From: Lachnospiraceae bacterium | Lineage (GTDB): Bacteria > Bacillota > Clostridia > Lachnospirales > Lachnospiraceae | Length of the DNA: 64,000 nucleotides | Reading direction: 5' to 3' | Assembly (NCBI GenBank): GCA_015056865.1 | Contig: SVFM01000002.1 | Location: 65,791 to 129,790, forward strand | Part shown: one piece after another, positions 3,226 to 17,539 of the stretch | Position numbering within the stretch: position 1 is the first letter of the stretch | How the letters are laid out: each line of letters opens with the position of its first letter | Translations under genes and position numbers: made by a program | The notes under the pieces: generated by a model | What the model was told of the DNA's origin: nothing | Databases searched by the model: none | The model's input: only the letters and a program-made list of their open reading frames with translations

Positions 3226-3969
3226 TCACATCATAACCCGACTCATCTCTTTTTTCAATTGTTTCATGATCTTTTTTTCCAGCCTGGAAATATAGGACTG
3301 GGATATTCCCAGCATAGCAGCCACTTCTTTCTGTGTCATCTCCTGCCCGTCCGGCATACCAAGTCCAAATCTCAGACGTACAATGGTCTTTTCCCGATCC
3401 GACAATTTATCCACTGCTTTCATCAAAAGCTTTCTTTCCACCTCATTTTCCAAGTCTCTGTAGATCACGTCCTCTTCCGTTCCCAGAATATCCGAAAGCA
3501 GTAGTTCATTCCCATCCCAGTCTACATTCAAGGGTTCATCGATAGATACCTCCAAACGGGTTTTATTATTTCTGCGTAAATACATCAGGATTTCATTCTC
3601 TATACACCTGGAGGCATAAGTCGCTAGCTTAATGTTTTTGTCAGGTTTAAAGGTATTAATGGACTTGATCAGTCCTATTGTGCCGATAGAGATCAAATCT
3701 TCCACACCCACGCCGGTGTTATCAAATTTTTTGGCTATGTAAACCACCAGCCGCAGATTATGTTCTATCAGGATAGCCTTGGCTTCATCCTCATATTCTG
3801 TTCCCAGATCACCGATAACCTGATTTTCTTTTTCAGATTCCAGCGGCGGTGGAAGCACTTCTGTACCCCCTATGTAATGAATATCGTTTTGTTTCTGCAT
3901 CAGGAGATTTCGCTCCCGCCGTATCATTTTAAATTGTATTCTCCCGGGTATTGCCACTCTTAATATCAT
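3226..3969 (-). CDS. sigE: RNA polymerase sporulation sigma factor SigE (pro-sigma-E)
   Basis: [12 protein letters not shown] pro-sequence junction and sigma-70 regions 2-4. The ATG at 3969 follows a GGAGGA; the in-frame ATG at 3981 is an alternative start. It lies directly downstream of spoIIGA. Confidence 0.92.
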
Positions 3970-3988
3970 TGTATCCTCCATTCTACCG

Positions 3989-4789
3989 TCAGCCCATCAG
4001 CTTTGGGTGCAAAATCATTTCATAATTGTCGCCTGCGGATATTTTGTGTTCCCCCACACCCAGATACACGTGATGCAAGGTACTCAGCACACCCTCTGCC
4101 TCTATCTTCATCTCAGGTATCTCATATCCTTTCAGAATACCGTGGGCACATCCTACACTGTGATATGGTACAGCCCTATAAAACTCCGGCACGCCCTCCG
4201 GCCACAACCGTTCCATCACCTGAGGCGCCACTACTGACACAGGTTTGCCGCTAATCGGTTCTGTCAAATGATTGCCCGTATCCACCAGAGCTGTGATGCA
4301 GACACAGAGATCGTCTTTTACCAAAGTGACTTTACAGAAAGTATGTGGTTCTCTTTTTCTCCTTTCCATCAGATAGGAAAAAAGAAGATAAAGCATCCCG
4401 CCCGCTCCTACGACCGCAGCCGCTCCCGGTATCAGATCTGTAATCCCTTGCAGGTATCGCATTATAAACAGCAAAGCGCCTCCCATCAAAAAGGAATATC
4501 CTATGAGAATTTCCGTGAGCTTAAAGCAAGATTTTATATCCACCGGGCGAAACACCCATTTGACCATACACACTCCTGCAATCCCAGTCCCCATAGCCAA
4601 TTTTAGCAAGGCCGGTACATAGGGCAGAATCAGACTGAAACAATAAAAAAGTGCTCCTATCAATGCCCCGCCCATTAGTCTCCGTCGTGTGGCAGTACGC
4701 CGGACACCTCTGTTCATCAGCATCAACAAGTAAAAATTCATTACAAAATTCACCAGAAACAGGGAATCTATGTAAATTTCATAAGTCAT
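3989..4789 (-). CDS. spoIIGA: sigma-E processing peptidase SpoIIGA
   Basis: 266 aa with multiple N-terminal TM segments, and LVDTGN in the C-terminal domain, which I take as the aspartic protease motif. Position immediately upstream of sigE. Confidence 0.88.
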
Positions 4790-4903: not shown

Positions 4904-4910
4904 CAGCAAT

Positions 4911-4964
4911 AAATATAAAATACCGGGCAGAATGGAAATATAAAGTTTCACATTCTACCCGGTA
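4911..4964 (-). terminator. Rho-independent terminator ending the accessory operon
   Basis: 14-bp stem with one mismatch (4921-4934 and 4951-4964), followed on the minus strand by TTTTATATTT. Confidence 0.6.
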
Positions 4965-4994: not shown

Positions 4995-6068
4995 CTATGA
5001 AAGCACCTTTTTTAAATAGTTCATTCCAACCTTTCTCAACTCGGATATTTTCTCATCCACCACATCCCAATTCTGCAAAAAACTGATTTGAAATATCTTT
5101 GTCTGGGAATCTTCCTTCCATACTGCCCCCAAGGTATCCAGAAGGTTTTGAATCCTATTGTTACGCTTGGCCAGCTTCTGCAAGGGTTTTATATATAAAT
5201 CTTTGTGGAACAACACTGCAAACACCGTCCCGTGAAAAGAATTGGTATATACCTCTTTTGCATGATAAAAGCAGCTGAGCCATTCCTGTGGGCCACAACC
5301 TCCTGCCTGTGAACTCAGCCCTTGAATACTGAGCATAGAACTGATGCACACCAACTGGCATCCCAAAGCTTTCGCACGCTCCTGTGCGATCTTATACAGC
5401 TGCGAGTCAAACTCCGTCATATAAAGTACCACTGCTTCTTTACTGTCATGCACAAGCTCTGCCCACTCCTTGGCAGTCAAAAGCAACGTGGGATCCGGGC
5501 AAATCTGTGCTTCCCGTCCCAGCAACTCTTGAATAATCCCTGCACCGGATGCCTCTCTCACAGAAATTTGCGCAAAATCCTTTAACTGTTCATAATACCA
5601 CTCTCTGGTCTTCTCCGGCAATTCCTCCATACCAAAACTGGCCGCATAAGAAATCCGTTTTTGAGGCTCTGCAAAATCAAGAAACCAAAACGGATCCGCT
5701 CCTGTAATCTCGAAATTCCATACCTGATCGCTGCCTGCCACAAAGCAGGAAAACTCTTGATTCAGATCCCTTTCCTCTGTCAGATCTGCTTCCGGCAGAT
5801 AATTTTCCACAAACCGCTGAAATTCTTTCTTTCGCAGATCCATGTAGCGCTGCATCATTTTCTTGGCAACCACTGCCACTTTGTCGTATTTCAGATCCGG
5901 TGATACACCTGCTTCCTGCTCTGCGACGGCAGCTTTTGCACGCTTATCACGCACAAAGCAAACCTCTGCACCCAAAGTTTCCAGTGCTCTGCACAAACCA
6001 AAAGCCTGCAATGCGGCCCCATAATTTTCGTGATTATGGAAAGTAACAATTCCAACTCTATTCTTCAT
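4995..6068 (-). CDS. polysaccharide pyruvyl transferase family protein
   Basis: VGIVTFHNHENYGAALQAFGL N-terminus is typical of the PS_pyruv_trans family. 11-nt overlap with the upstream GT2 gene. Confidence 0.75.
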   Translation of the reverse strand: MKNRVGIVTFHNHENYGAALQAFGLCRALETLGAEVCFVRDKRAKAAVAEQEAGVSPDLKYDKVAVVAKKMMQRYMDLRKKEFQRFVENYLPEADLTEERDLNQEFSCFVAGSDQVWNFEITGADPFWFLDFAEPQKRISYAASFGMEELPEKTREWYYEQLKDFAQISVREASGAGIIQELLGREAQICPDPTLLLTAKEWAELVHDSKEAVVLYMTEFDSQLYKIAQERAKALGCQLVCISSMLSIQGLSSQAGGCGPQEWLSCFYHAKEVYTNSFHGTVFAVLFHKDLYIKPLQKLAKRNNRIQNLLDTLGAVWKEDSQTKIFQISFLQNWDVVDEKISELRKVGMNYLKKVLS

Positions 6069-6928: not shown

Positions 6929-8311
6929 CTACTCCCCCTTCTTTTTCTGCCGAAGGTGCTCCCGCAAAATACGTGCATAGTCCATCTGTTCCTGGCCTCG
7001 CATACGCCTTCCGGTGTTATTTTCATGGATTCGGCGCTCTAACGTAACATATTCGATCCTGCAAGAAGGCAATCCGGTATTTCTGAACTTTAATTGCCAT
7101 GCCACTGTTTCACCGGTTTTCAACTGTAGATCAAATGGCCCTACCTTTCGGAATACTTCCTTGCGGATCAGAGAACATCCCGGCAGGCAACCGCTGTAAG
7201 TTCTTACCTTTCCCTCTTCACCGGCATTGGTGGATCGGCCCGGCAGATCATAAAAATCTCTGGCATAGGAAAACACTGCACTTAAACTGCCATCCTTTTG
7301 TATGGGAGCATACAGTGCTTCAAAGGCCCCTTCCGTCAGCCTGTCATCTGCATCCAAAAAGAAAAGCCAGGAATACTGTGCCATCGTGATCGCCGTATTT
7401 CTGGATGCTGCAGCTCCTCTATGCTCCGCCTTACATACAACTGCTCCGGCCTGCTTTGCCAATTCGGCCGTGTCATCCTCTGATCCGTCATCCACCACAA
7501 TAATTTCAACCGGCAACTCCGTAAACTTTTGTTTTTTTACACTCTCAATGCACTCCACAATAAATTTCTGTGCATTCCAGGCGGGAATTAAAACTGATAT
7601 GCCGTTTTTCTCCATGTTGTTTCTCCTCACTGCACGAATACTTTTGTGTACAATGTCCTTCTGGAACTGCTTGCGCTGCTCTTTGCACTGTTTTGCTCCG
7701 CTACCGGTCAGATTTTTCCCGTGGAGTCTGCGCAGATACAGTTTTTCTTCCATATATGCTCTGGGAATCTTTTGTAGCCAGATTTGATAGGTCCACTCTG
7801 AATCCTCACCTCGCTCCAGGTCTTCGGAAAACAATCCGCATTGATTCAGAATGCTCCTATGAAATAATGCGGTAGGAAGGCAGGCAATATCATGCTCTGC
7901 AAATTGACAACAACGCTTTACCCACTCCTCCTGCGCAGATACAGAAGACTCCAAAAAATTTTCGTACGCGGTAAACACGATCTTGCACTCCGGATGTTCT
8001 TTTAAATACGCCATCTGCAGCCGCAGCTTTTCCGGTTTCCAATAATCATCCGCATCAAGAAAGGCCAGATAATCACCTGTTGCCCTTTTCAGCGCGGTAT
8101 TGCGCGCCGCTGAAACGCCCCTGTGTTCCTGTCTGATATAATTGACCTGCGGAAAATTTGCAACCACTTTTGGGGTATCATCCGTGGAACCATCATCCAC
8201 CACCAGAATTTCCAGTTCCTCACCACAGTCCTGAGCCATCACACTATCGATACATTCTGCAAGAAATCTACCGTAATTGTATGTAACGATCAAAACAGAA
8301 ATTTTACTCAT
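6929..8311 (-). CDS. tandem (two-domain) glycosyltransferase family 2
   Basis: Two GT-A modules in one 460-aa protein: SVLIVTYNYGRF..VVDDGSTDDT..LDADD and SVLIPAWNAQKF..VVDDGSEDDT..LDADD. Confidence 0.85.
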   Translation of the reverse strand: MSKISVLIVTYNYGRFLAECIDSVMAQDCGEELEILVVDDGSTDDTPKVVANFPQVNYIRQEHRGVSAARNTALKRATGDYLAFLDADDYWKPEKLRLQMAYLKEHPECKIVFTAYENFLESSVSAQEEWVKRCCQFAEHDIACLPTALFHRSILNQCGLFSEDLERGEDSEWTYQIWLQKIPRAYMEEKLYLRRLHGKNLTGSGAKQCKEQRKQFQKDIVHKSIRAVRRNNMEKNGISVLIPAWNAQKFIVECIESVKKQKFTELPVEIIVVDDGSEDDTAELAKQAGAVVCKAEHRGAAASRNTAITMAQYSWLFFLDADDRLTEGAFEALYAPIQKDGSLSAVFSYARDFYDLPGRSTNAGEEGKVRTYSGCLPGCSLIRKEVFRKVGPFDLQLKTGETVAWQLKFRNTGLPSCRIEYVTLERRIHENNTGRRMRGQEQMDYARILREHLRQKKKGE

Positions 8312-8735
8312 CCGCTCCCTCTTCCTTCAGAACCGGCCAGCCAAACTCCTCATCAACATCATGCACCGGGTCTGCAGAAATCAGATCAACCAGATCTTCA
8401 TAACTGTCCAGCAGGAACTCTCTTCCTTCCATGAACCACATTTCCTCTGCAACAATCTCCTCATCATAGCAGGCATCTTCATCAGTAAGAATCATTTCAT
8501 AAGCCAACAAATTTGCAACGAAGCTGTCCAGTGCAACCTCTATATCCTCCGGACAGGAAGGGAGCTTTCTCAGCGCCTCTGCAATCTTGCCCACAGGAGC
8601 ACCTGACACCAGCTTCTCAAACACCTTTGAGGCCAGCATATTCATACCGTAATAAACACCACTAGTGGAATCGATCACCACTGCCTGCTCCTCTGCCATA
8701 TCAAAAAACATTTTTTCCTCATTCAACTTATACAT
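8304..8735 (-). CDS. PqqD-family (RRE-like) protein with an acidic C-terminal extension
   Basis: N-terminal ~80 aa (AVVIDSTSGVYYGMNMLASKVFEKL..IAEAL) looks like a PqqD peptide-chaperone fold. ATG at 8735 with AAGGAGA. 8-nt overlaps with both neighbouring genes. Confidence 0.65.
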   Translation of the reverse strand: MYKLNEEKMFFDMAEEQAVVIDSTSGVYYGMNMLASKVFEKLVSGAPVGKIAEALRKLPSCPEDIEVALDSFVANLLAYEMILTDEDACYDEEIVAEEMWFMEGREFLLDSYEDLVDLISADPVHDVDEEFGWPVLKEEGADE

Positions 8736-9774
8736 CTTTCAGTTCTCCTTTTATTAATTTTTTTAATGCATCTGCATTTTTTTTCGTATCTTTGCTGAGA
8801 ATCAGCTCATAAGAGGGGATTTCTTTTACACAATCAAATACCCGGTAAACAAAATTACTACCCTTTATCTGATTTTCCCCGTTCTGCCTTGCAGATGACA
8901 CTGCCATCTGCATCTTTCCCCTTTTGTGTTCATCCGGAACAATTTTAGGATCTTTTACTTCTTCCCCTTTGATCACACGGGGACACACCAGCGCACAGAC
9001 CTCCATACCATCCGCAAACTGTTCCCAATAAGGCAGCAGATCAATGATGGATCTGCCCGGACGATTCGGCACTTCTCCGATCACATGCTCTTTCAGCCCC
9101 GGCAGCATATTCAAGCTGTCTGAATTCAAAATGCCGCAGGAATACAGAGGATAAACTCTTCTGGTCTTCGTGTCCATGATCAAATAATCATCCGATACAT
9201 AGTCCATATTTTCCGTCAATGCACTGAGGGCTGTGGTAGACTTGCCGTTTCCGCCGTTTGCACTGAGCAGAACCCCTCTGCCATCTACCCCTACTGCCGC
9301 GGAATGAAGATATAAATATCCGTTGTTTTGAGCAAAATAATGGAATTCCCTGCGAAAAGGATGCCAGGTAGGGCTATATTCTCTCAAATCTCTTCCGTCA
9401 AAGCAGACATATTGGATATGGGTTGTCATGTCATAAGCCCCAAACCAGCGTCCATACCGATTGGCCCTGATGAAACCGGCCTCTCCTTCATACTCTATTA
9501 CATTGGCCCCCTCACCGACTCCGGGCGGCAGCACATCATCCAGCGCTGTATTCCAAAAACGGATCGCTCCGTTTGCTGCTGCGTCCGAATCCATGTACAC
9601 ATATTTGAGAGAAATTTTATACTCCTCATACAACTCCTGTGTAGGAAAAGAAAGCTCCAACACATGATGGCCAAAACGAATCTTAAAACTTGGAAATCCT
9701 TTTGTCTTCCCTTCCAGCCATGCAAAATAAGACTGCATCTGCGCTTTCGTAGCCTTTATGTGAGTTCTTTTCAT
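8728..9774 (-). CDS. HPr-kinase-related P-loop serine kinase
   Basis: HSAAVGVDGRGVLLSANGGNGKSTTALSAL resembles the HprK C-terminal P-loop. The ATG at 9774 makes an ATGA overlap with the upstream stop; the alternative start is 9837. Confidence 0.65.
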   Translation of the reverse strand: MKRTHIKATKAQMQSYFAWLEGKTKGFPSFKIRFGHHVLELSFPTQELYEEYKISLKYVYMDSDAAANGAIRFWNTALDDVLPPGVGEGANVIEYEGEAGFIRANRYGRWFGAYDMTTHIQYVCFDGRDLREYSPTWHPFRREFHYFAQNNGYLYLHSAAVGVDGRGVLLSANGGNGKSTTALSALTENMDYVSDDYLIMDTKTRRVYPLYSCGILNSDSLNMLPGLKEHVIGEVPNRPGRSIIDLLPYWEQFADGMEVCALVCPRVIKGEEVKDPKIVPDEHKRGKMQMAVSSARQNGENQIKGSNFVYRVFDCVKEIPSYELILSKDTKKNADALKKLIKGELKDV

Positions 9775-10943
9775 GAAAGTTTTCGGCTGTCCACATTCTT
9801 TATTTTCCGGAATATGTACAGAATCCACTCTCTCCATGTCTTACACCCCCACATCTTTTTAATATAATTCGGAAACGTAAACAAATCAATCAATAGACAA
9901 AACTTTTCGCTGACATAACGATGATAATTCCAATGATACTTCAGCATCAGCCAGGCATATCGGAACCGTTTCTTCCTCCGAATTTGTTGGCCCATTCGAT
10001 GGGCGGCAGAACGCTTCAGCATAACAGGGATTTTTTTTACGGTCATGTCAGCCACGTTTATTCTTCCTAATATGTCTTCCGGAACCTTTCCCGGCATAAT
10101 ATCACAGAAGATACCGAGCATTGTTTTTACCTGCAAGCCCAAGCTATACCTCTCACACAAAGCCAAAACCTTATCCCAATCAACCTGATGTTCCTCTAAA
10201 ATGGTATTGATATCGGTAATCCAGCGCATCCATTTTCGCTTCAGGATGGAATCCCCCTCTGCGGCATCCAGAAAAATATTGGTTAAGATCAAGATCAACA
10301 TGGACTCCGGAGCAGGTATAAAAACCTTTTCTCCCTGTATCTCTGTCGAAATCGCATCCTCCCAAAAAACAGCTTCATTGTTCTTATGCAGATTCTCTTT
10401 CAAGAAAAACTGATGGGCCTCCACATAGTATCGCTCTCTTTTTAACACCAAATGCGGCATGGAAACAAAACTTTCGTACTCCGAATTGCTTTGCATCAAC
10501 TTGCACAATCTGTCAAAATCCTCGTAGCGTACCCAGCAGTCCACGTCTCCCATGTAACAAATGCCATTCCTTTTGTAGTAGCCTTTCATGGCCCCGCCCT
10601 TCATGAGCATCACATCTATGCCCTGGCGGTTACATATCTTAAGAAATGCATGAAAGTCCTGCATCTGCCCAAGATTCATCATGCGATAGTACCGGACAAC
10701 ACCTCGCACTCTGGGGTTTAAAGACCTGGGAACCCCTTCATAATGCAGTCTGGTGGACAATTCTGCCAGCGCACAGACATGCTGCCCACTTAAATTTTCA
10801 AAGTCGATCGTTGCATAGTAATCAGCCAATTGCTGCGGCGTGGTATTTTTATCCACACACATTCTGAGAAACTTTATGTCCTCATCCTTCAGATTGAGAT
10901 TGCCAAAACAATGGTCTCTTAGGTACTTCTGCTTATCTCTCAT
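9771..10943 (-). CDS. nucleotidyltransferase family protein (NTP_transf_5-like)
   Basis: MLMKGGAMKGYY..GDVDCWV motif is typical of the uncharacterised nucleotidyltransferase family. The ATG at 10943 makes an ATGA overlap with the upstream stop; the track start at 11126 lies inside the upstream gene. Confidence 0.6.
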   Translation of the reverse strand: MRDKQKYLRDHCFGNLNLKDEDIKFLRMCVDKNTTPQQLADYYATIDFENLSGQHVCALAELSTRLHYEGVPRSLNPRVRGVVRYYRMMNLGQMQDFHAFLKICNRQGIDVMLMKGGAMKGYYKRNGICYMGDVDCWVRYEDFDRLCKLMQSNSEYESFVSMPHLVLKRERYYVEAHQFFLKENLHKNNEAVFWEDAISTEIQGEKVFIPAPESMLILILTNIFLDAAEGDSILKRKWMRWITDINTILEEHQVDWDKVLALCERYSLGLQVKTMLGIFCDIMPGKVPEDILGRINVADMTVKKIPVMLKRSAAHRMGQQIRRKKRFRYAWLMLKYHWNYHRYVSEKFCLLIDLFTFPNYIKKMWGCKTWREWILYIFRKIKNVDSRKLS

Positions 10944-12055
10944 CGCAGTTTGCTTCCTCCGATTGCTCCATATTTCTTCATGAAATCCTCCCAGCACAAC
11001 GTCCTGCAGTCTTTCATAAAAATTGCCCGCAGAGGCGTTTTTTTGATAGGCCCCTGCAATCTGGGCTGCAGTACCTGCTCCCCGGAATATTCCTTCAACA
11101 GACCTTCCTTCTGCAGCTGTCTGCAAAATTCACGTCCCTTTGCTGTATTTCCGATTACCAGCGAAACCCCTCTCTTTAATGCAAATTCCTCATCCTGCAG
11201 CCCGTGGAAATCTCCCAGTGTAATATCTCCCGGTCTGTTTAGAGAAGCGTACTTACACTGATAACAGGATGGTCTGGTGATAAATCCCCTCTGATACCAG
11301 AAGGAATAGCAATTGTTTGCCAATAGCTCGGCCCGCTCTGCACCATCCTCCAGCACCCAGGAGACTGCCCGCCCATACTCTGCACGCTTGTCCCGGAAAC
11401 GAAAGCTTTGCACTTTCTGCTGTTCTTTTTTTTCCAGAGCATTTATATATTTTGACCACACAGCCGGAGAACCCACTCCATTGCACACGATATCTACAAG
11501 CAGCAGATTATCACGCAGATTGCCTGACATCTGCTCTACCGTTTGTCGCAGTCCGTCAACCTGACAGGGTGTCCCGGAAAAAAGCACTTTGCTGCCTTGC
11601 CTTAGTTGCCTAAGCACTTCCCCAATACCGTCCCAAGCTTCACTTTCCACATACTTGGAATTGCGAAGCCGGTACAACTCCTCTTCACTCCTGCAACAGA
11701 TATGTCGAACCGTTTTGTCCTCATCCATAGCCGCGCCGCAGATCAGATTACCGCCAGCCTTCCAGAACATCCCGGCCAAAACCGAAAACGCTCCCCCGGA
11801 AGCACTCTCCCTAAGGAGCTGGGTATCTGTGGTCTGAAATCCATAATACCGCACATCCTCCCCAGCCTCTGGAACTTCTTGTTCAATGGGACACACACTC
11901 GCGCAACCACCGCACTCCACACAAAGCGCTTCATCTATCACCGGATAGACAAAACCTTCTTCATCCCTTTGCATGCGGATTGCATTCTGCGGACATATAT
12001 TTGCGCATGCTGCGCAGCCATAGCATTTTCCTTTGTTATCCATTTGTATTTTCAT
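10940..12055 (-). CDS. FrhB/FdhB-like (coenzyme F420 hydrogenase beta-subunit family) protein with N-terminal 2x[4Fe-4S] ferredoxin
   Basis: CYGCAACANICP and CVECGGCASVCP cluster motifs. This family commonly partners pyruvyl transferases in glycan loci. The start is 12055 or 12043. Confidence 0.7.
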   Translation of the reverse strand: MKIQMDNKGKCYGCAACANICPQNAIRMQRDEEGFVYPVIDEALCVECGGCASVCPIEQEVPEAGEDVRYYGFQTTDTQLLRESASGGAFSVLAGMFWKAGGNLICGAAMDEDKTVRHICCRSEEELYRLRNSKYVESEAWDGIGEVLRQLRQGSKVLFSGTPCQVDGLRQTVEQMSGNLRDNLLLVDIVCNGVGSPAVWSKYINALEKKEQQKVQSFRFRDKRAEYGRAVSWVLEDGAERAELLANNCYSFWYQRGFITRPSCYQCKYASLNRPGDITLGDFHGLQDEEFALKRGVSLVIGNTAKGREFCRQLQKEGLLKEYSGEQVLQPRLQGPIKKTPLRAIFMKDCRTLCWEDFMKKYGAIGGSKLR

Positions 12056-13736
12056 ATATCCAACCTTTTGCTTTTTTGCCACTGATTGCAATTATCTCAT
12101 CACAGATGCCCAAGGCTTCCTGCCTGTGTGTGATAATGACAACTGTTTTCTTTCCTCTCCATTCACCAACCATATCCATGATCTTCTGTTCTGTGGCATA
12201 ATCCAGAGCCGAAGTGGCTTCATCCAGCACCAGCACATCGGCCTGCTTGTAAAAGGCTCTGGCGATACCGATCCTCTGTCTCTGTCCGCCGGACAAACGC
12301 ACGCCCCACTGACCGATATAAGTATCCAGACCATCCGGCAGGCTTTGCACGTATTCTTTTAATTGAGCTGCTTCCAACGCTGCCCAAATACTCTCATCCC
12401 CCAGATGCTCCAGTCCAAACAACACGTTCTCCCGGATCGATCCGTCCAAAAGACTTACATTCTGAGGAATATAAGCGATTTGGGCTGCCCATCTATTCAT
12501 GGCTTCTCTGCTATGGTAAATATTCACACCACCAACCATTACCTCTCCGGACAGTGGCTCCAATAGCCCCAGCATCATGTCTACCAGAGTGGTTTTACCT
12601 GCTCCGGAAAGCCCCGTGATTCCCAACACAGTTCCCGCCTTCACAGTCAGATCCAGTTCCTCCAGCACCAATTCCTCTGTATCCGGATAGCGAAAGCTGA
12701 CCTTGTCCAGCACCAGTTGCCCCCAGGATGCATCAAGTGCGGAAGTAACCTCGCCCTCTGGCTCCCCGTCACCTTCCTGTTTTGCATTTTCTATGCCATC
12801 CAGCACTTCCATGGTGCGCCTTAAGGATATGGCAAGCCAATTTTTACCATTCAGCGCATTGTTGATCCTGGACATGCAGGGAAGCATGCGGATTGCTACA
12901 ACCGCAAATACCGCTAAGCTGCTTAGGGTATCCGAAGTGCCTACACCCATGTTTACGAACAAACTTACTGCCAGAAGCATGCCACAGATCGTCCCCATCT
13001 CCAGAATCATCCTGGGAATAGATCTGATATAAGTGGTTTTCACCTCCATTTTACAGGATTTTTCTACGCTGTCCAACAATTTTCCTGTAAAAAAAGGCTC
13101 CTTCTTTTCCGCCTTGACAATTTTAATACAATTCACTGTCTGAAGCAGCCACTTATTAAAATCGTTGGTCAACAGCCAGGATTTTTCGCTTTCTTTCGCT
13201 AAATAGGGTTTGATAAAAACTTGAATTCCTCCCATCAGCAACAGATAAAACGCAAAAATAATAACCGTTACCATGGGATTGACAACAAACAAAAATGCAC
13301 TGAGCACTGCAACCATCATAAATTCTGAGCACATATGAAGTAACTGGTTCAAAAGATCGAAGGTCCTTCTGATATCTCCATCCATATGCTGAATCAGTTC
13401 CGGCGTACTCATTCTGGCATGATACAGATAAGGACTCCGCAACAGGTTGCCAATAATTACCTTCTGCAGCATCAATCTGTTTTTTCCGGTAAACCAGAGT
13501 TGAAAATACGTTACTGCAGATAAATAGATATTTTTAACACAATACACTCCGCACATCAGAAGCAGTATTCGAATCACTTTATCCGGTTCCGATATACTGG
13601 TTAACGCAGGGATCACTAATGAAAGACCCACACACTCCAGCAAAGATGCAATAAAAAGCAGGATCAGCAGCAGGACACACATCCTCTTTTGTCTGCCTGT
13701 TAAAATTTTTCTGTAAGCCTTAATAATTTCTTTCAT
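12036..13736 (-). CDS. ABC exporter, fused permease/ATPase
   Basis: Six-TM N-terminal half, Walker A GLSGAGKTTL, signature LSGGQRQRI, Walker B VLVLDEATSALD. Confidence 0.9.
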   Translation of the reverse strand: MKEIIKAYRKILTGRQKRMCVLLLILLFIASLLECVGLSLVIPALTSISEPDKVIRILLLMCGVYCVKNIYLSAVTYFQLWFTGKNRLMLQKVIIGNLLRSPYLYHARMSTPELIQHMDGDIRRTFDLLNQLLHMCSEFMMVAVLSAFLFVVNPMVTVIIFAFYLLLMGGIQVFIKPYLAKESEKSWLLTNDFNKWLLQTVNCIKIVKAEKKEPFFTGKLLDSVEKSCKMEVKTTYIRSIPRMILEMGTICGMLLAVSLFVNMGVGTSDTLSSLAVFAVVAIRMLPCMSRINNALNGKNWLAISLRRTMEVLDGIENAKQEGDGEPEGEVTSALDASWGQLVLDKVSFRYPDTEELVLEELDLTVKAGTVLGITGLSGAGKTTLVDMMLGLLEPLSGEVMVGGVNIYHSREAMNRWAAQIAYIPQNVSLLDGSIRENVLFGLEHLGDESIWAALEAAQLKEYVQSLPDGLDTYIGQWGVRLSGGQRQRIGIARAFYKQADVLVLDEATSALDYATEQKIMDMVGEWRGKKTVVIITHRQEALGICDEIIAISGKKAKGWIYENTNG

Positions 13737-13739
13737 CCT

Positions 13740-14426
13740 CTATATCCCTTTATTACTCAGACAATAACCGCCCAGTGCTTTTCTCCAACCGATTTCATTT
13801 CCAATCCAGGCTTCTTCCGATTGCACCACATGGTTATCAAAAAAATATTGATCCAAACAAAGGCCCGGTTCAACTTGGGTATATACCCGCCGGACACCTT
13901 CTGCTCCACTGACATCGTGCACATTGATGAGTGCGATTTCCTTGCCCGGATAAATTTCTGCAAACTGTCTCAGAAAAAGACACAGCTGATCATGGTCCAC
14001 ATTCCACGTACCGATCAATCCAATCTTCTCAGCCTTTCTCAGATGATTTACCATTCTCACATAACGAACCCGCATTACCCGTAAAAAATCTTTTTTTGCC
14101 TCATCCACGCTCTCACTCTTGGGAAAATAGTGCATGCAGTATATGTCATTTTTCATGTCATAGACAATTCTGTGTGGACTTTCCTCAGGCGGAGTTTTCG
14201 TCTTTGACTCCTCAAGCTCCATAAAAAAATCCATAAATCTGGTTTGGAACAAGTGAATCAAAGAGTCCCACTGTTTCATCAACTGCCAGTCCAGAGGTGT
14301 TGCGCAGGTGTACAGATCACATTTCTTCATCCAATACGTGACCTGACAATTAGGACCAATATTTACATAAAAATCCAATTTCTTTTTTCCCTCATCCATT
14401 GTCCTTACCAACCATTCCTTTGTCAC
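13740..14426 (-). CDS. DUF1796-like putative papain-fold cysteine peptidase
   Basis: FYVNIGPNCQVTYWMKK..ATPLDW matches the G-x-N-C ... P-x-D-W pattern I associate with DUF1796. No search was run. Confidence 0.4.
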   Translation of the reverse strand: MTKEWLVRTMDEGKKKLDFYVNIGPNCQVTYWMKKCDLYTCATPLDWQLMKQWDSLIHLFQTRFMDFFMELEESKTKTPPEESPHRIVYDMKNDIYCMHYFPKSESVDEAKKDFLRVMRVRYVRMVNHLRKAEKIGLIGTWNVDHDQLCLFLRQFAEIYPGKEIALINVHDVSGAEGVRRVYTQVEPGLCLDQYFFDNHVVQSEEAWIGNEIGWRKALGGYCLSNKGI

Positions 14427-16269
14427 TTTGCCTCTTTATCGCTTTTCCCACGGCACGAATCATGGCTTCCTGCCTTTTGATCAGTTCCTCATCAATATGA
14501 TAAGTCTTCATATAATGCAATACTTCCCTAAAATGAGGCATATCCTTATGGGCAACAGCATACCTGATATACCACTCTTTGTTCTTATAAAGATCATCCG
14601 TATCAAACACCTCTTTGAAACGCTCCAAATTTCCCAGCGCATAAAGGCCCAAAACCGTTCTCACACACTTTCCGCAGCGGCCACAGTTATGAGCACGGGT
14701 TGCATAAATGCAAGGATGTAATGTATCATGGACCAACGGATAATCAGCCAGTTCCTTTAATTTCTGCATCCTGGGAACTGAGCCGCCGGAGGAATAAAAC
14801 ACCGTACAATCTGTTTGATAATACGCCAGCGGCAAGATTTGATAATAACCGGAATCACCCTCGTCAAAAGTAAATTGGGAAAAATCATAATCGGAAGAGT
14901 TGTAAAATGCACCAAACAATTTTTGAAATACCATTGCCACTGCCGGAAGGCGAAAGGCCTCAACCGCAAGATAGTTGACCTCCTCAAAACTCTGCAGATT
15001 AGAATTTACCCCTATCACCGCAAACCCATTTTTTTCACCAAACAATTTGGCATTTTCCACCATTTTCTCAAGTGTCTGGGCGCTGTCAGCCGCTTGGATG
15101 GCACCGTTGCTGGTTACCAGCAAATGAGTAAGTCTTCTGCTTTTGTGTAAAATATTATCATGTTTCATCAACGTATAACTACAGTCCACTCCACCGGTCC
15201 AACCGGTTCCGACAGCGCCTTCACAAGAAAGTTTGTCATCTGAACAATCTGCTTGAATTTGGATGTACTTCCGCTTGGGAATATGTGTTGCCAATGCGGG
15301 AATCAAATAGTCATTCAGCTGATGCAAAAGCCTTCTACTAACCGGTAATTCGCTTATAATATCCTGGCCCCGTTCCATAGCCATGGTTAGCAATCCTGCT
15401 ACCTGCGCGTCAGCTCTGTCTGTCACAAAATACTGCTCATATTTTTCTTCTGTCTCAAACCATAGAATGCTCTTGTGTGAATCCAATTCCACCGGTGTGC
15501 ACAGTCGACTCATTTTGCCACGCTTTTCTATGTAAGACCTTCCTATCCTGATTCCGGATGTTTTTTCCCGGGGTCGCTTCTGTCCCATACCGGAAAGATA
15601 AAACGTAAGAGAATCTATCGTCATGCAGTCTGCAAGCAACAAATTGCAACCCATCACTTCCCGAAACTGTGGAAACCATTCTTTCGTTTCCTCCAGACAT
15701 GGCATCACAAAAACCTTAAATAATTTTTGTAATGCAAGCACCCCAGCCAGAGTACGTATAAAAAAGCCCCCGGAAACAGACCGCCCCAACACCTCATCTA
15801 TGTTCATATTCAGAAAAACTGTTTTTAATCCCGGAACCTCCGTGTTGTCCGGCCCCAAAACCAGCAGATGACTTAAAGGATATTCACTGTTCTTTACTTC
15901 CTCTACCTGTCCCCAAAACACAGTTCCCACTGCGTGACTTGTCTCTATGTGCCCGGTATACAATGGTGCCTGTATATGCACCTTGCCCCTGTTAGCCGGC
16001 GGGCACAATGCAGGAATCAAATACTGTTCTATCTGATAGTGCAAACGCTCCGTCACCGGATATTCGCACACGATTTCCTCTCCTGTCTCTAAGGCATAAG
16101 AAACAAGAAGAACCACAAAAGCATCTGCACAGTGGATTGATAAATATTCTGCATAGTTCTTATCTGTTTCAAACCATAAACACTCTTGTCTACCATTTCG
16201 TTCAATTCCGGCACATAATCGTATCCGCAAACTATCTTGTTCTGTGTATATCTCTCTAATCTTAATCAT
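14392..16269 (-). CDS. hypothetical 625-aa protein with an internal duplication, a PP-loop-like motif and a C-terminal Cys cluster
   Basis: Residues 31-88 (LWFETDKNYAEY..YLIPAL) align with 269-326 (LWFETEEKYEQY..YLIPAL). TGGVDCSY lies at 358-365. HPC..HNCGRCGKC lies at 518-535. ATG at 16269. Confidence 0.6.
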   Translation of the reverse strand: MIKIREIYTEQDSLRIRLCAGIERNGRQECLWFETDKNYAEYLSIHCADAFVVLLVSYALETGEEIVCEYPVTERLHYQIEQYLIPALCPPANRGKVHIQAPLYTGHIETSHAVGTVFWGQVEEVKNSEYPLSHLLVLGPDNTEVPGLKTVFLNMNIDEVLGRSVSGGFFIRTLAGVLALQKLFKVFVMPCLEETKEWFPQFREVMGCNLLLADCMTIDSLTFYLSGMGQKRPREKTSGIRIGRSYIEKRGKMSRLCTPVELDSHKSILWFETEEKYEQYFVTDRADAQVAGLLTMAMERGQDIISELPVSRRLLHQLNDYLIPALATHIPKRKYIQIQADCSDDKLSCEGAVGTGWTGGVDCSYTLMKHDNILHKSRRLTHLLVTSNGAIQAADSAQTLEKMVENAKLFGEKNGFAVIGVNSNLQSFEEVNYLAVEAFRLPAVAMVFQKLFGAFYNSSDYDFSQFTFDEGDSGYYQILPLAYYQTDCTVFYSSGGSVPRMQKLKELADYPLVHDTLHPCIYATRAHNCGRCGKCVRTVLGLYALGNLERFKEVFDTDDLYKNKEWYIRYAVAHKDMPHFREVLHYMKTYHIDEELIKRQEAMIRAVGKAIKRQSDKGMVGKDNG

Positions 16270-16375
16270 ATCTTCATGCTTTTTCTTTTAAAAAGGGACT
16301 GACTTAAACTGCCAATCCCTTACAAACATTTTTTCACAAATTAGTAAATCCTAAAAACTTCTCCAATTCCAAAGC

Positions 16376-17539
16376 CTATTTTTTCTGCAGGAAATCCGGA
16401 ATCTTCAAGGACTTCTCTTCTACGGAAGAACGGATATCCGCCGGCTTATTGATGCCTGTAAGCGGCTTGGGTGCAGCTGCTGTACCGGAAGGCATAGCCT
16501 GCGGCTTAGGGCTGACCGGCTTGATAGACGGGGTGGGTATATATGTAAATCCACCGCCCAATCTGGTCTGTGCACCGGGCACATTGATCTTGTCCTCCAG
16601 ACCTGTAGCGATCACAGTAATGGTACAAGCATCTGTTCTTGCGCCATCATACATAGCACCGAAGATAATATTCACATCATCTCCTGCCAGTTCCTGTACG
16701 TAGCTTGCAGCATCAGATGCATCTGTCAGGGTAATATCACCGGATACATTGATGATCACATGGGTAGCACCTGTGATCGTAGTCTCCAGAAGAGGACTCT
16801 CCACCGCCATCTTAACAGCTTCCAGAGCCTTGTCGTCTCCCTTGCCGGAACCAATACCAATATGGGCAATACCCTTGTCCTTCATAACCGTCTGCACATC
16901 TGCAAAGTCCAGATTGATCACGGAAGGCACATTGATCAGATCTGTAATACCCTGCACGGCCTGCTGCAGAACTTCATCCGCCTTCTTCAATGCCTCGGGC
17001 ATGGTTGTCCGTCTGTCAACAATTTCAAGCAGCTTATCATTGGGGATAACGATCAGGGTATCCACATGCTCCTTAATCTTCTCAATACCGCTGAGTGCGT
17101 TTACCATACGCGCCTTCGCCTCAAAACGGAAAGGTTTAGTCACAACACCAACAGTCAGAATACCCATATCTTTGGCAATCTTAGCCACTACAGGTGCCGC
17201 ACCGGTACCGGTACCACCACCCATACCGCAGGTAACGAATACCATATCAGCCCCCTGCAATGCAGCCGTAAGCTCCTCAGTGCTTTCCTCAGCAGCCTTC
17301 TCACCGATCTCCGGTCTGGCACCGGCGCCAAGGCCCTTGGTCAGCTTCTCACCAATCTGCAGGAGCTTAGGTGCTTTGCAAAGCTGCAAAGCCTGTTTGT
17401 CGGTGTTCACTCCCACAAATTCCACTCCGTCTATACACTCATCGATCATTCTATTTACAGCATTATTTCCGGCACCGCCAACACCTACAACAATGATTTT
17501 AGCTGCGGATTCTGCTTCGTTTGTCTTTATCTCCAGCAA
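16376..17539 (-). CDS. ftsZ: cell division protein FtsZ
   Basis: [13 protein letters not shown] and [11 protein letters not shown] tubulin motifs. The only start upstream of these motifs is the TTG at 17539, 8 nt after a GGAGG. Confidence 0.97.

Follow-up and report, generated by a model that had tools for sequence, protein, structure and literature searches.

Three consecutive genes in a 64,000-nucleotide (nt) stretch of DNA from a Lachnospiraceae bacterium (contig SVFM01000002.1, positions 65,791 to 129,790 of the forward strand; hereafter the window, whose numbering gives our coordinates) encode a PqqD-like protein, an HPr-kinase-like (HprK-like) P-loop protein and a nucleotidyltransferase-fold protein of the NTP_transf_5 family (NT5). 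A preliminary description of this DNA presented the trio as an orphan set with no lasso cyclase and no precursor peptide. We found that the trio is part of a cassette of at least five genes, two of them encoding family 2 glycosyltransferases (GT2), that is conserved across phyla in glycan-type neighbourhoods. The cassette may well be a glycan-directed module that assembles or decorates a cell-surface glycan by phospho-glycosyl chemistry, and not a system for lasso-peptide maturation; we regard this reading as evenly poised.

The trio belongs to a widespread cassette

A word-indexed database contained few close relatives of the kinase-like protein, with nine matches. With E ≤ 1e-3 as the limit, a hidden Markov model of the kinase family, run against 1.84 billion representative sequences, recovered 10,424 proteins; 1,745 clusters passed the stricter limit of E ≤ 1e-30. 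The family spans bacteria of the candidate phyla radiation (CPR), Chlamydiota, Planctomycetota, Chloroflexota, Cyanobacteria, Proteobacteria and Clostridia. Scanning one genome per species yielded 80 loci, drawn from Nitrospirota, Planctomycetota, Chloroflexota, Patescibacteria, Chlamydiota, Cyanobacteria, Acidobacteriota, Bacteroidota, Desulfobacterota, Proteobacteria and Actinomycetota, in which genes were called with a simple longest-open-reading-frame (ORF) heuristic. The canonical gene order is PqqD-like (about 145 amino acids, aa), HprK-like (about 360 aa), GT2 (about 235 aa), GT2 (about 235 aa) and NT5 (about 390 aa), often with an added MsbA-type ATP-binding cassette (ABC) exporter, which was present at 27 of the 80 loci. 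The PqqD-like gene adjoins the HprK-like gene at 51 loci and lies within 8 kb of it at 69, these 51 included. At 62 loci the HprK-like gene has a GT2 gene as its direct neighbour or fusion partner, and at 75 a GT2 gene lies within 8 kb; the remaining five loci are on short contigs. NT5 is found within 8 kb at 59 loci; of the 21 loci without it, 17 have short flanks.

Gene fusions tie the same partners together. The 460-aa double GT2 of the window is a fusion of two canonical GT2s of about 230 aa, and its halves match separate GT2 genes of another locus (L095; labels of this form denote loci in our comparisons). HprK::GT2 fusions occur at five genome loci (Pfam-confirmed in L022), and library representatives include GT2::HprK (573–587 aa) and HprK::GT2::GT2 (833 aa) proteins. 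NT5 is fused to a Polysacc_synt domain (Wzx-type flippase) in two CPR (Patescibacteria) genomes (L031:11244-13859 and L067:11342-13789) and to a GT2 in a locus labelled uncultured Paraperlucidibaca sp. (L061:3822-6875); a B2/transglutaminase domain was absent from all of the long NT5 proteins. The GT2s are integral to the system, being conserved and sometimes fused, so that the unit is a cassette of at least five genes. The trio does sit in a Clostridial glycosyltransferase operon, as first described, but the GT2s are members of the cassette and not merely its surroundings.

The cassette lies among glycan genes

We used Pfam to classify 302 further same-strand ORFs lying within the 80 cassettes or close to them. 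The dominant groups are GT4 glycosyltransferases, sugar epimerases/dehydratases, sulfotransferases, short-chain dehydrogenases/reductases, methyltransferases and ABC-2 transporters. Closer relatives have Wzy_C, LytR_cpsA_psr, Bac_transf and Polysacc_synt genes nearby, and ABC-2 genes are also carried by relatives. The window operon itself has the make-up of a surface-polysaccharide locus in its three GT2 genes, its pyruvyl transferase and its PglK/MsbA/HepA-like ABC exporter.

Genes for peptides that are synthesized ribosomally and modified after translation (RiPPs) were sought in the same places. Pfam searches of the ten operon proteins returned no Asn_synthase-type cyclase and no radical SAM protein, and a transglutaminase-like B2 protease was found neither in the operon (Pfam and NCBIfam) nor among 98 small neighbour ORFs. 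We saw no plausible precursor ORF of at least 20 aa in the two intergenic regions flanking the operon; inside it, gene junctions leave gaps of at most 4 nt. No small ORF upstream of the PqqD-like gene was conserved across 69 related loci. In a PP-loop motif search, an Asn synthase turned up at only one of the 80 loci, and it is a true AsnB bearing a glutamine amidotransferase (GATase) domain; Radical_SAM with SPASM domains occurred in 2 of 204 larger neighbour ORFs (among loci L060–L094). The absence of an Asn-synthetase-like cyclase, a B2 protease and a short precursor gene, noted in the preliminary description, is thus confirmed. What does not stand is the framing of this absence as a local peculiarity: since lasso genes and a conserved precursor are missing across the 80 loci, the 'orphan' state is the rule for the cassette family and not a feature of this genome. 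Nor did we see homologous trios always beside a canonical lasso or other RiPP cluster, an explanation raised at the outset; their neighbours in the 80-locus comparison were of glycan type.

Conserved residues of the kinase-like and NT5 proteins

The kinase-like protein carries a Walker A motif, NGGNGKSTT, at aa 173–181 (DNA 9232–9258). Against Hpr_kinase_C (PF07475) it scored 21.5 bits, under the threshold of 33.3, and the match covered only profile positions 8–57 of 171, the P-loop core. Its best NCBIfam match was TIGR04352 (34.1 bits; cut-off 200), and those to the ScmC model TIGR04249 (25.7 bits; cut-off 125), to TIGR04355 and to HprK were also far under cut-off; the precomputed Pfam annotation of the protein is PF27840, 'ScmC'. 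The family profile matched the HprK/P structures 1ko7 and 1jb1 (E = 4e-5) over the P-loop segment LH..G.GVL..G..G.GKS....L......DD. The features of the HprK/P catalytic core, namely the Walker A motif, an upstream histidine and a downstream DD, are all present, and LHSAAVGVDGRGVLLSANGGNGKSTTALSALTENMDYVSDDY aligns with both structures. Among 85 relatives, H157, G175, G177, K178, S179 and T181 were invariant, and D195/D196 were retained in 80–81. Because these catalytic-type residues are invariant or nearly so, the protein is, judged by its sequence, likely to be an active NTP-dependent enzyme.

NT5 is a clear member of NTP_transf_5 (PF14907), with 82.9 bits against a cut-off of 31.2. Its nucleotidyltransferase motif, KGG...GDVD (tested as G[GS]...DxD), lies at aa 115–135 (DNA 10530–10601); a sequence search with NT5 against solved structures gave nothing useful. 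Both motifs first quoted for these proteins, GGNGKST and KGG..GDVDCWV, are in the sequence. The three family names given to the trio hold at the domain level, according to Pfam and NCBIfam profile searches and a structure comparison of the PqqD-like model.

The PqqD-like protein has a conserved C-terminal tail

Against Pfam PqqD (PF05402; threshold 23.4) the window protein scored 22.6 bits, and orthologues in other phyla scored 40.8, 51.5 and 55.3. Matches of the PqqD-like proteins to the NCBIfam lasso_PqqD models reached 21–33 bits, with cut-offs of 70–80. The AlphaFold2 (AF2) model of the window protein had a predicted local distance difference test score (pLDDT) of 82.7. The PqqD-like proteins of the cassette consist of a RiPP recognition element (RRE) fold, a hypervariable linker and a near-invariant C-terminal segment. 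The consensus of this tail, P.LekY.DMQdLLLlDP[IV]H[DE]VDE.GWP, hardly varies across 69 proteins representing many phyla, and the motif occurs exactly once per locus at 68 of the 80 loci. It is a feature that has not previously been reported. In the AF2 model, a strand (109–112) and a helix (115–121) of the tail were confident and packed on the domain, and the most conserved part, DPVHDVDEEFGWP (DPVH..GWP), had a pLDDT of less than 50, which is what a segment that folds against a partner should show. The tail alignment contains no invariant Ser, Thr or Tyr, and its aromatic position is Y or F.

Twelve of the 80 loci, mostly from Chloroflexota, lack both the PqqD-like gene and the tail motif, and nine of them have an upstream flank long enough to make the absence of the gene certain. 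Gene maps drawn for these loci still show HprK-like, GT2 and NT5 genes, which makes it more likely that the RRE protein is an adaptor than an acceptor. In a subset without the PqqD-like gene and the tail motif, mostly Chloroflexota (L040, L041, L042, L045, L049, L050, L057, L066, L087 and L092), the maps cover seven loci, and sulfotransferase genes often lie alongside the HprK-like, GT2 and NT5 genes.

Comparison with known systems

In the paeninodin and pseudomycoidin pathways, an HPr-kinase homologue phosphorylates a peptide Ser hydroxyl, and in pseudomycoidin its nucleotidyltransferase partner then adds a hexose to the phosphate; the literature bears out this chemistry as the preliminary description gave it. 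The cassette resembles the lasso tailoring set (B1 RRE, PadeK/PsmK, PsmN and exporter D) in having the same three domain families and an ABC exporter, and its RRE fold is nearest to lasso B1. It differs in having no precursor, Asn-synthetase-like cyclase or B2 protease, here and in the 80 related loci, so that of four lasso features looked for, the B1-type RRE was the only one found. Unlike in the lasso set, GT2s are obligatory in the cassette and sometimes fused to the kinase, the RRE has its extra conserved C-terminal tail, and the neighbours are glycan genes. NT5::B2 fusions have been reported in lasso clusters, whereas the fusion partner of cassette NT5 is a Wzx flippase or a GT2.

The pairing of a PqqD-like protein with an HprK-like P-loop protein also recalls the HPr-rel-A system, which the preliminary description cited as a similar trio and to whose model, TIGR04352, the kinase comes closest in NCBIfam. 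That label does not apply: besides the window protein, kinases from two other loci scored 24.1 (L036) and 40.5 bits (L053) against the cut-off of 200, and the HPr-rel-A PqqD model gave no match. Every NCBIfam match of the PqqD-like proteins was under cut-off: lasso_PqqD for all three and, for L036 alone, PQQ_PqqD. By these scores the cassette kinase is a separate, uncurated family and not the curated HPr-rel-A kinase.

In the SynChlorMet cassette, ScmC is accompanied by a PqqD-like protein. The window kinase shares such a partner and has the PF27840 annotation and the weak TIGR04249 match mentioned above, which falls well short of its cut-off, and the defining radical-SAM/SPASM partners of SynChlorMet are not in the operon. 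Nucleotidyltransferase-fold enzymes of the LicD and fukutin/FKRP type can put phosphodiester-linked groups on glycans. The operon, with its PS_pyruv_trans protein and PglK/MsbA-like exporter, may resemble LicD/FKRP-type pathways and the CsaB pathways of pyruvylated cell-wall glycans in working mode; the comparison is not one of family, as the CsaB model TIGR03609 gave 26 bits against a cut-off of 213, and we found no membership of LicD or CsaB at the sequence level.

A literature search on the cassette, PF14907, HprK-related kinases and ScmC found no characterisation, and the RRE-Finder papers mention neither this kinase nor the nucleotidyltransferase. What is new is therefore the arrangement: known parts in a conserved, precursor-less, glycan-associated cassette that no paper we found describes.

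The host operon in the window

The trio forms the middle of a tightly coupled, minus-strand operon of ten genes that runs from 16269 down to 4995 (about 11 kb; Table 1). In order of transcription, it encodes the 625-aa protein, the DUF1796 protein, the ABC exporter, the FrhB-like Fe-S protein, NT5, the HprK-like protein, the PqqD-like protein, the double GT2, the third GT2 and the pyruvyl transferase. We inspected all junctions, and each is an overlap or a gap of at most 4 nt, as had been claimed. The FrhB-like/NT5 and NT5/HprK-like junctions are 4-nt overlaps that read 'tcat' on the plus strand (10940–10943 and 9771–9774) and ATGA on the minus strand. The HprK-like and PqqD-like genes overlap by 8 nt (8728–8735), with the stop of the former at 8728–8730 and the start of the latter at 8733–8735; these ORFs and overlaps are as first described. 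Downstream, the PqqD-like gene overlaps the double GT2 by 8 nt, a 4-nt gap precedes the third GT2, and an 11-nt overlap joins this gene to the pyruvyl transferase. At the upstream end, the 625-aa gene overlaps DUF1796, a 3-nt gap separates DUF1796 from the ABC exporter, and the exporter overlaps the FrhB-like gene. The gene starts match the gene calls of identical or near-identical contigs.

The operon is flanked by ftsZ (16376–17539) on one side and by spoIIGA/sigE (3989–4789 and 3226–3981) on the other. The same arrangement is found in a relative (L007; GCA_052848995.1) with 89–91% protein identity, and the GC profile over the operon showed no island signature or anomalous GC content. A hairpin followed by a T-run was seen by eye right after ftsZ (16296–16320, minus strand), about 25 nt ahead of the first operon gene. 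In a scan for promoter and terminator consensus sequences, counts were not above those of shuffled controls, neither this hairpin nor the one after the last operon gene was listed, and no operon promoter was identified.

Table 1. Features of the operon and their positions in the window
Feature	Position	Strand	Basis
Terminator-like hairpin and T-run after the last operon gene	4908–4964	−	Read from sequence: TACCGGGTAGAATG / CATTCTGCCCGGTA then TTTTATATTTATT
Polysaccharide pyruvyl transferase, 357 aa	4995–6068	−	PF04230, 84 bits
Third GT2 glycosyltransferase, 288 aa	6058–6924	−	PF00535, 100 bits; start agrees with L001/L002 gene calls
Double GT2 glycosyltransferase, 460 aa	6929–8311	−	Two Glycos_transf_2 domains, 225.6 bits
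PqqD-like RRE protein with extra conserved C-terminal tail, 143 aa	8304–8735	−	Pfam PqqD; AF2 and Foldseek
PqqD-like C-terminal tail motif, aa 109–134, FLLDSYEDLVDLISADPVHDVDEEFGWP	8334–8411	−	Alignment consensus
HPr-kinase-like P-loop protein, 348 aa	8728–9774	−	P-loop; profile match to HprK/P structures
NTP_transf_5 nucleotidyltransferase-fold protein, 390 aa	9771–10943	−	Pfam PF14907
FrhB/FdhB-like Fe-S protein, usual partner of pyruvyl transferase, 371 aa	10940–12055	−	FrhB_FdhB_C, 80.9 bits; 4Fe-4S domains
Half-size ABC exporter, PglK/MsbA/HepA type, 566 aa	12036–13736	−	ABC_membrane and ABC_tran
DUF1796 putative papain-like cysteine peptidase, 228 aa	13740–14426	−	PF08795, 39.1 bits (cut-off 23)
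625-aa tandem duplication, PP-loop-like domain	14392–16269	−	Motif conservation; AF2; weak Foldseek matches

The best NCBIfam match of the ABC exporter was PglK, at 242 bits against a cut-off of 1000. The pyruvyl transferase is kept in Clostridial relatives (L008, L015, L095 and L098), and in three of them (L008, L095 and L098) an FrhB-like protein is paired with PS_pyruv_trans. PS_pyruv_trans, the FrhB-like protein and an MsbA-type ABC exporter recur as a Clostridial module, with or without the RRE/kinase cassette (L095:10668-14473, L098:11755-15751, and 4995–6068 with 10940–13736 in the window).

The 625-aa protein is a duplication of an unnamed domain of about 300–385 aa. Its C-terminal copy has the motif TGGVDCS (DNA 15178–15198) and a four-cysteine cluster, HPC...NCGRCGKC (DNA 14665–14712); its N-terminal copy is degenerate. 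We collected 94 homologues, mostly Clostridial proteins of about 385 aa with neither a name nor a Pfam domain, two of them fused to a GT2. The family conserves [ST]GGVDS and the four-cysteine cluster, and L095 has three tandem paralogues, one with a canonical SGGVDS. Searches of the Protein Data Bank with the protein sequence and its profile gave nothing useful. The AF2 model was very confident (pLDDT 93.5), and Foldseek matched it weakly to two PP-loop enzymes, NAD synthetase (E = 4.5e-3) and LarE (probability 0.92); because these matches are weak, we assign the protein to the PP-loop-like enzymes only tentatively. At L098 the family stands beside two GT2 genes and pyruvyl transferase, FrhB-like and ABC genes with no RRE, kinase or NT5, so we assign it to a glycan module distinct from the cassette. 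In Bacillus songklensis (L097:7243-9209), a single-domain homologue adjoins a YheC/D-type ATP-grasp gene, and spore-related genes are near (Tlp, a cell-wall hydrolase with a Hydrolase_2 domain, and Amidase_3).

The DUF1796 gene lies inside a glycan-type operon, and its only other match among the examined loci was in L007 (89–91% identical), as for a lineage-specific accessory. The 625-aa and DUF1796 proteins share broad enzyme types (PP-loop-like and papain-like) with lasso C and B2, but neither is homologous to them. The earlier statement that the operon has no cyclase and no protease accordingly holds for homologues of the lasso enzymes, but it needs qualifying, because it overlooked a candidate PP-loop-like ATPase and a papain-like protein.

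Weighing possible functions

In the glycan-directed reading that we favour, the HprK-like enzyme would use ATP to phosphorylate an acceptor hydroxyl, and the nucleotidyltransferase-fold NT5 would add a sugar or phospho-linked group onto the phosphate, by analogy with PsmK/PsmN in pseudomycoidin. The GT2s would prime or extend the sugar chain, and the PqqD-like protein would serve as an adaptor, docking a partner enzyme through a conserved C-terminal motif that is intrinsically unstructured. In the window operon, the pyruvyl transferase and its FrhB-like partner might also pyruvylate the product, the PP-loop-like enzyme might act on it, and the PglK/MsbA-like ABC transporter might flip or export it. 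We infer this chemistry, the order of its steps and a glycan, perhaps lipid-linked, as the acceptor. The preliminary description had reasonably proposed a phospho-glycosylation module that acts on a peptide, a protein or a non-peptide acceptor; the NT5::Wzx fusions and the glycan neighbours tilt this choice towards a glycan.

Several observations weigh against this reading. To our knowledge, all RRE/PqqD domains characterised so far bind a peptide. Foldseek placed the PqqD-like model closest to lasso B1 proteins (TbiB1, 5v1v/5v1u, and 6jx3; TM 0.82–0.84, probability 1.0), and the sole characterised HprK-like/NTP_transf_5 pair works on a peptide Ser. The docking role suggested for the tail comes from a single-chain AF2 model. 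Among the ten operon proteins, moreover, Pfam and NCBIfam identified no initiating phosphoglycosyl transferase (Bac_transf/WecA type), Wzx or Wzy, so a lipid-linked route is not self-evident in the window operon; some relatives (L011/L012) do have an initiating phosphoglycosyl transferase.

A rival reading is a phospho-glycosylation system directed at a peptide or protein, in which the RRE would present an unlinked precursor, a protein or its own tail to the kinase, NT5 and the GT2s, and the ABC transporter would export the product, amounting to pseudomycoidin-type tailoring without the lasso fold. The lasso B1 proteins nearest to the RRE were solved with leader peptides, the kinase/nucleotidyltransferase pair has been characterised on lasso peptides alone, and lasso clusters of rumen Butyrivibrio are reported to contain GT2 genes too. 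A tail that is near-invariant and disordered in isolation is also what would be expected of a presented peptide segment, and ABC half-transporters of this kind export peptides as well, with partial NCBIfam matches here to NHLP bacteriocin and peptide cleavage/export ABC families. We nevertheless think this rather unlikely, given that no small ORF is conserved beside the cassette at the 69 loci, that proteases, cyclases and other core enzymes of RiPP pathways do not recur, and that NT5 is fused to a flippase for lipid-linked oligosaccharides. A presented tail fits poorly with the 12 loci that have neither RRE nor tail motif, and with a tail that has no invariant hydroxyl residue and accepts Y or F at its aromatic site. 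A purely regulatory module is a more distant prospect, in which the HprK-like protein and its PqqD-like adaptor would phosphorylate and control the glycosyltransferases or the exporter, in the manner of BY-kinases in capsule synthesis or of HprK/HPr, and would take no part in making the product. HprK/P is a regulatory protein kinase, its P-loop, His and DD residues are conserved here, and HprK-like::GT2 fusions in both orders are compatible with regulation in cis. The strict partnership with NT5 (59 of 80 loci) and two dedicated GT2s suggests a catalytic pathway instead; no conserved phospho-acceptor was identified, and a purely regulatory role would leave the RRE unexplained, all of which makes this alternative improbable.

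It is harder still to credit a cryptic lasso-like or macrolactam RiPP pathway in this Clostridial operon, with the 625-aa protein as cyclase, DUF1796 as B2, the PqqD-like protein as B1, the ABC exporter as D and a precursor encoded elsewhere. A PP-loop adenylation domain is at work in lasso cyclases too, and the operon has one protein of each broad type (PP-loop-like, papain-like peptidase, RRE and ABC exporter). Yet the 625-aa family is found at L098 with GT2, pyruvyl transferase, FrhB-like and ABC genes and none of the cassette's RRE, kinase or NT5, some of its members are fused to GT2, and its fold similarity to PP-loop enzymes is weak. The operon proteins have no Asn_synthase or transglutaminase Pfam match, DUF1796 is otherwise confined to the close relative L007, and no precursor was seen in the flanking intergenic regions; we consider this pathway very improbable. 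More speculative than the glycan-directed reading, and in our view unlikely, is the idea that an RRE protein has been recruited outside RiPP biosynthesis. Its tail could then act as a built-in 'leader' that gathers the kinase, glycosyltransferases and nucleotidyltransferase on a glycan or, more boldly, the tail or linker could itself be the primer for a phosphate-linked glycan in a protein-primed synthesis.

Implications

RRE/PqqD domains are used as class-independent markers in genome mining for RiPPs, and a pairing of HprK-like with NTP_transf_5 genes is taken to signal lasso tailoring. Because the RRE and the HprK-like/NT5 pair sit with GT2s in glycan loci that contain no precursor, cassette loci are likely false positives for such mining. 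Testable handles on the system come from the domain fusions, from the conserved motif in the tail and from the residues that are invariant in the kinase. If an RRE has indeed been recruited outside RiPPs, with its tail as leader or primer, the cassette would represent a new, phylum-spanning class of RRE-dependent glycan pathway. More broadly, the cassette family may be an unstudied route to phosphate-linked glycan decoration, and it suggests a possible source from which the 'K' and 'N' tailoring enzymes of lasso peptides were recruited.

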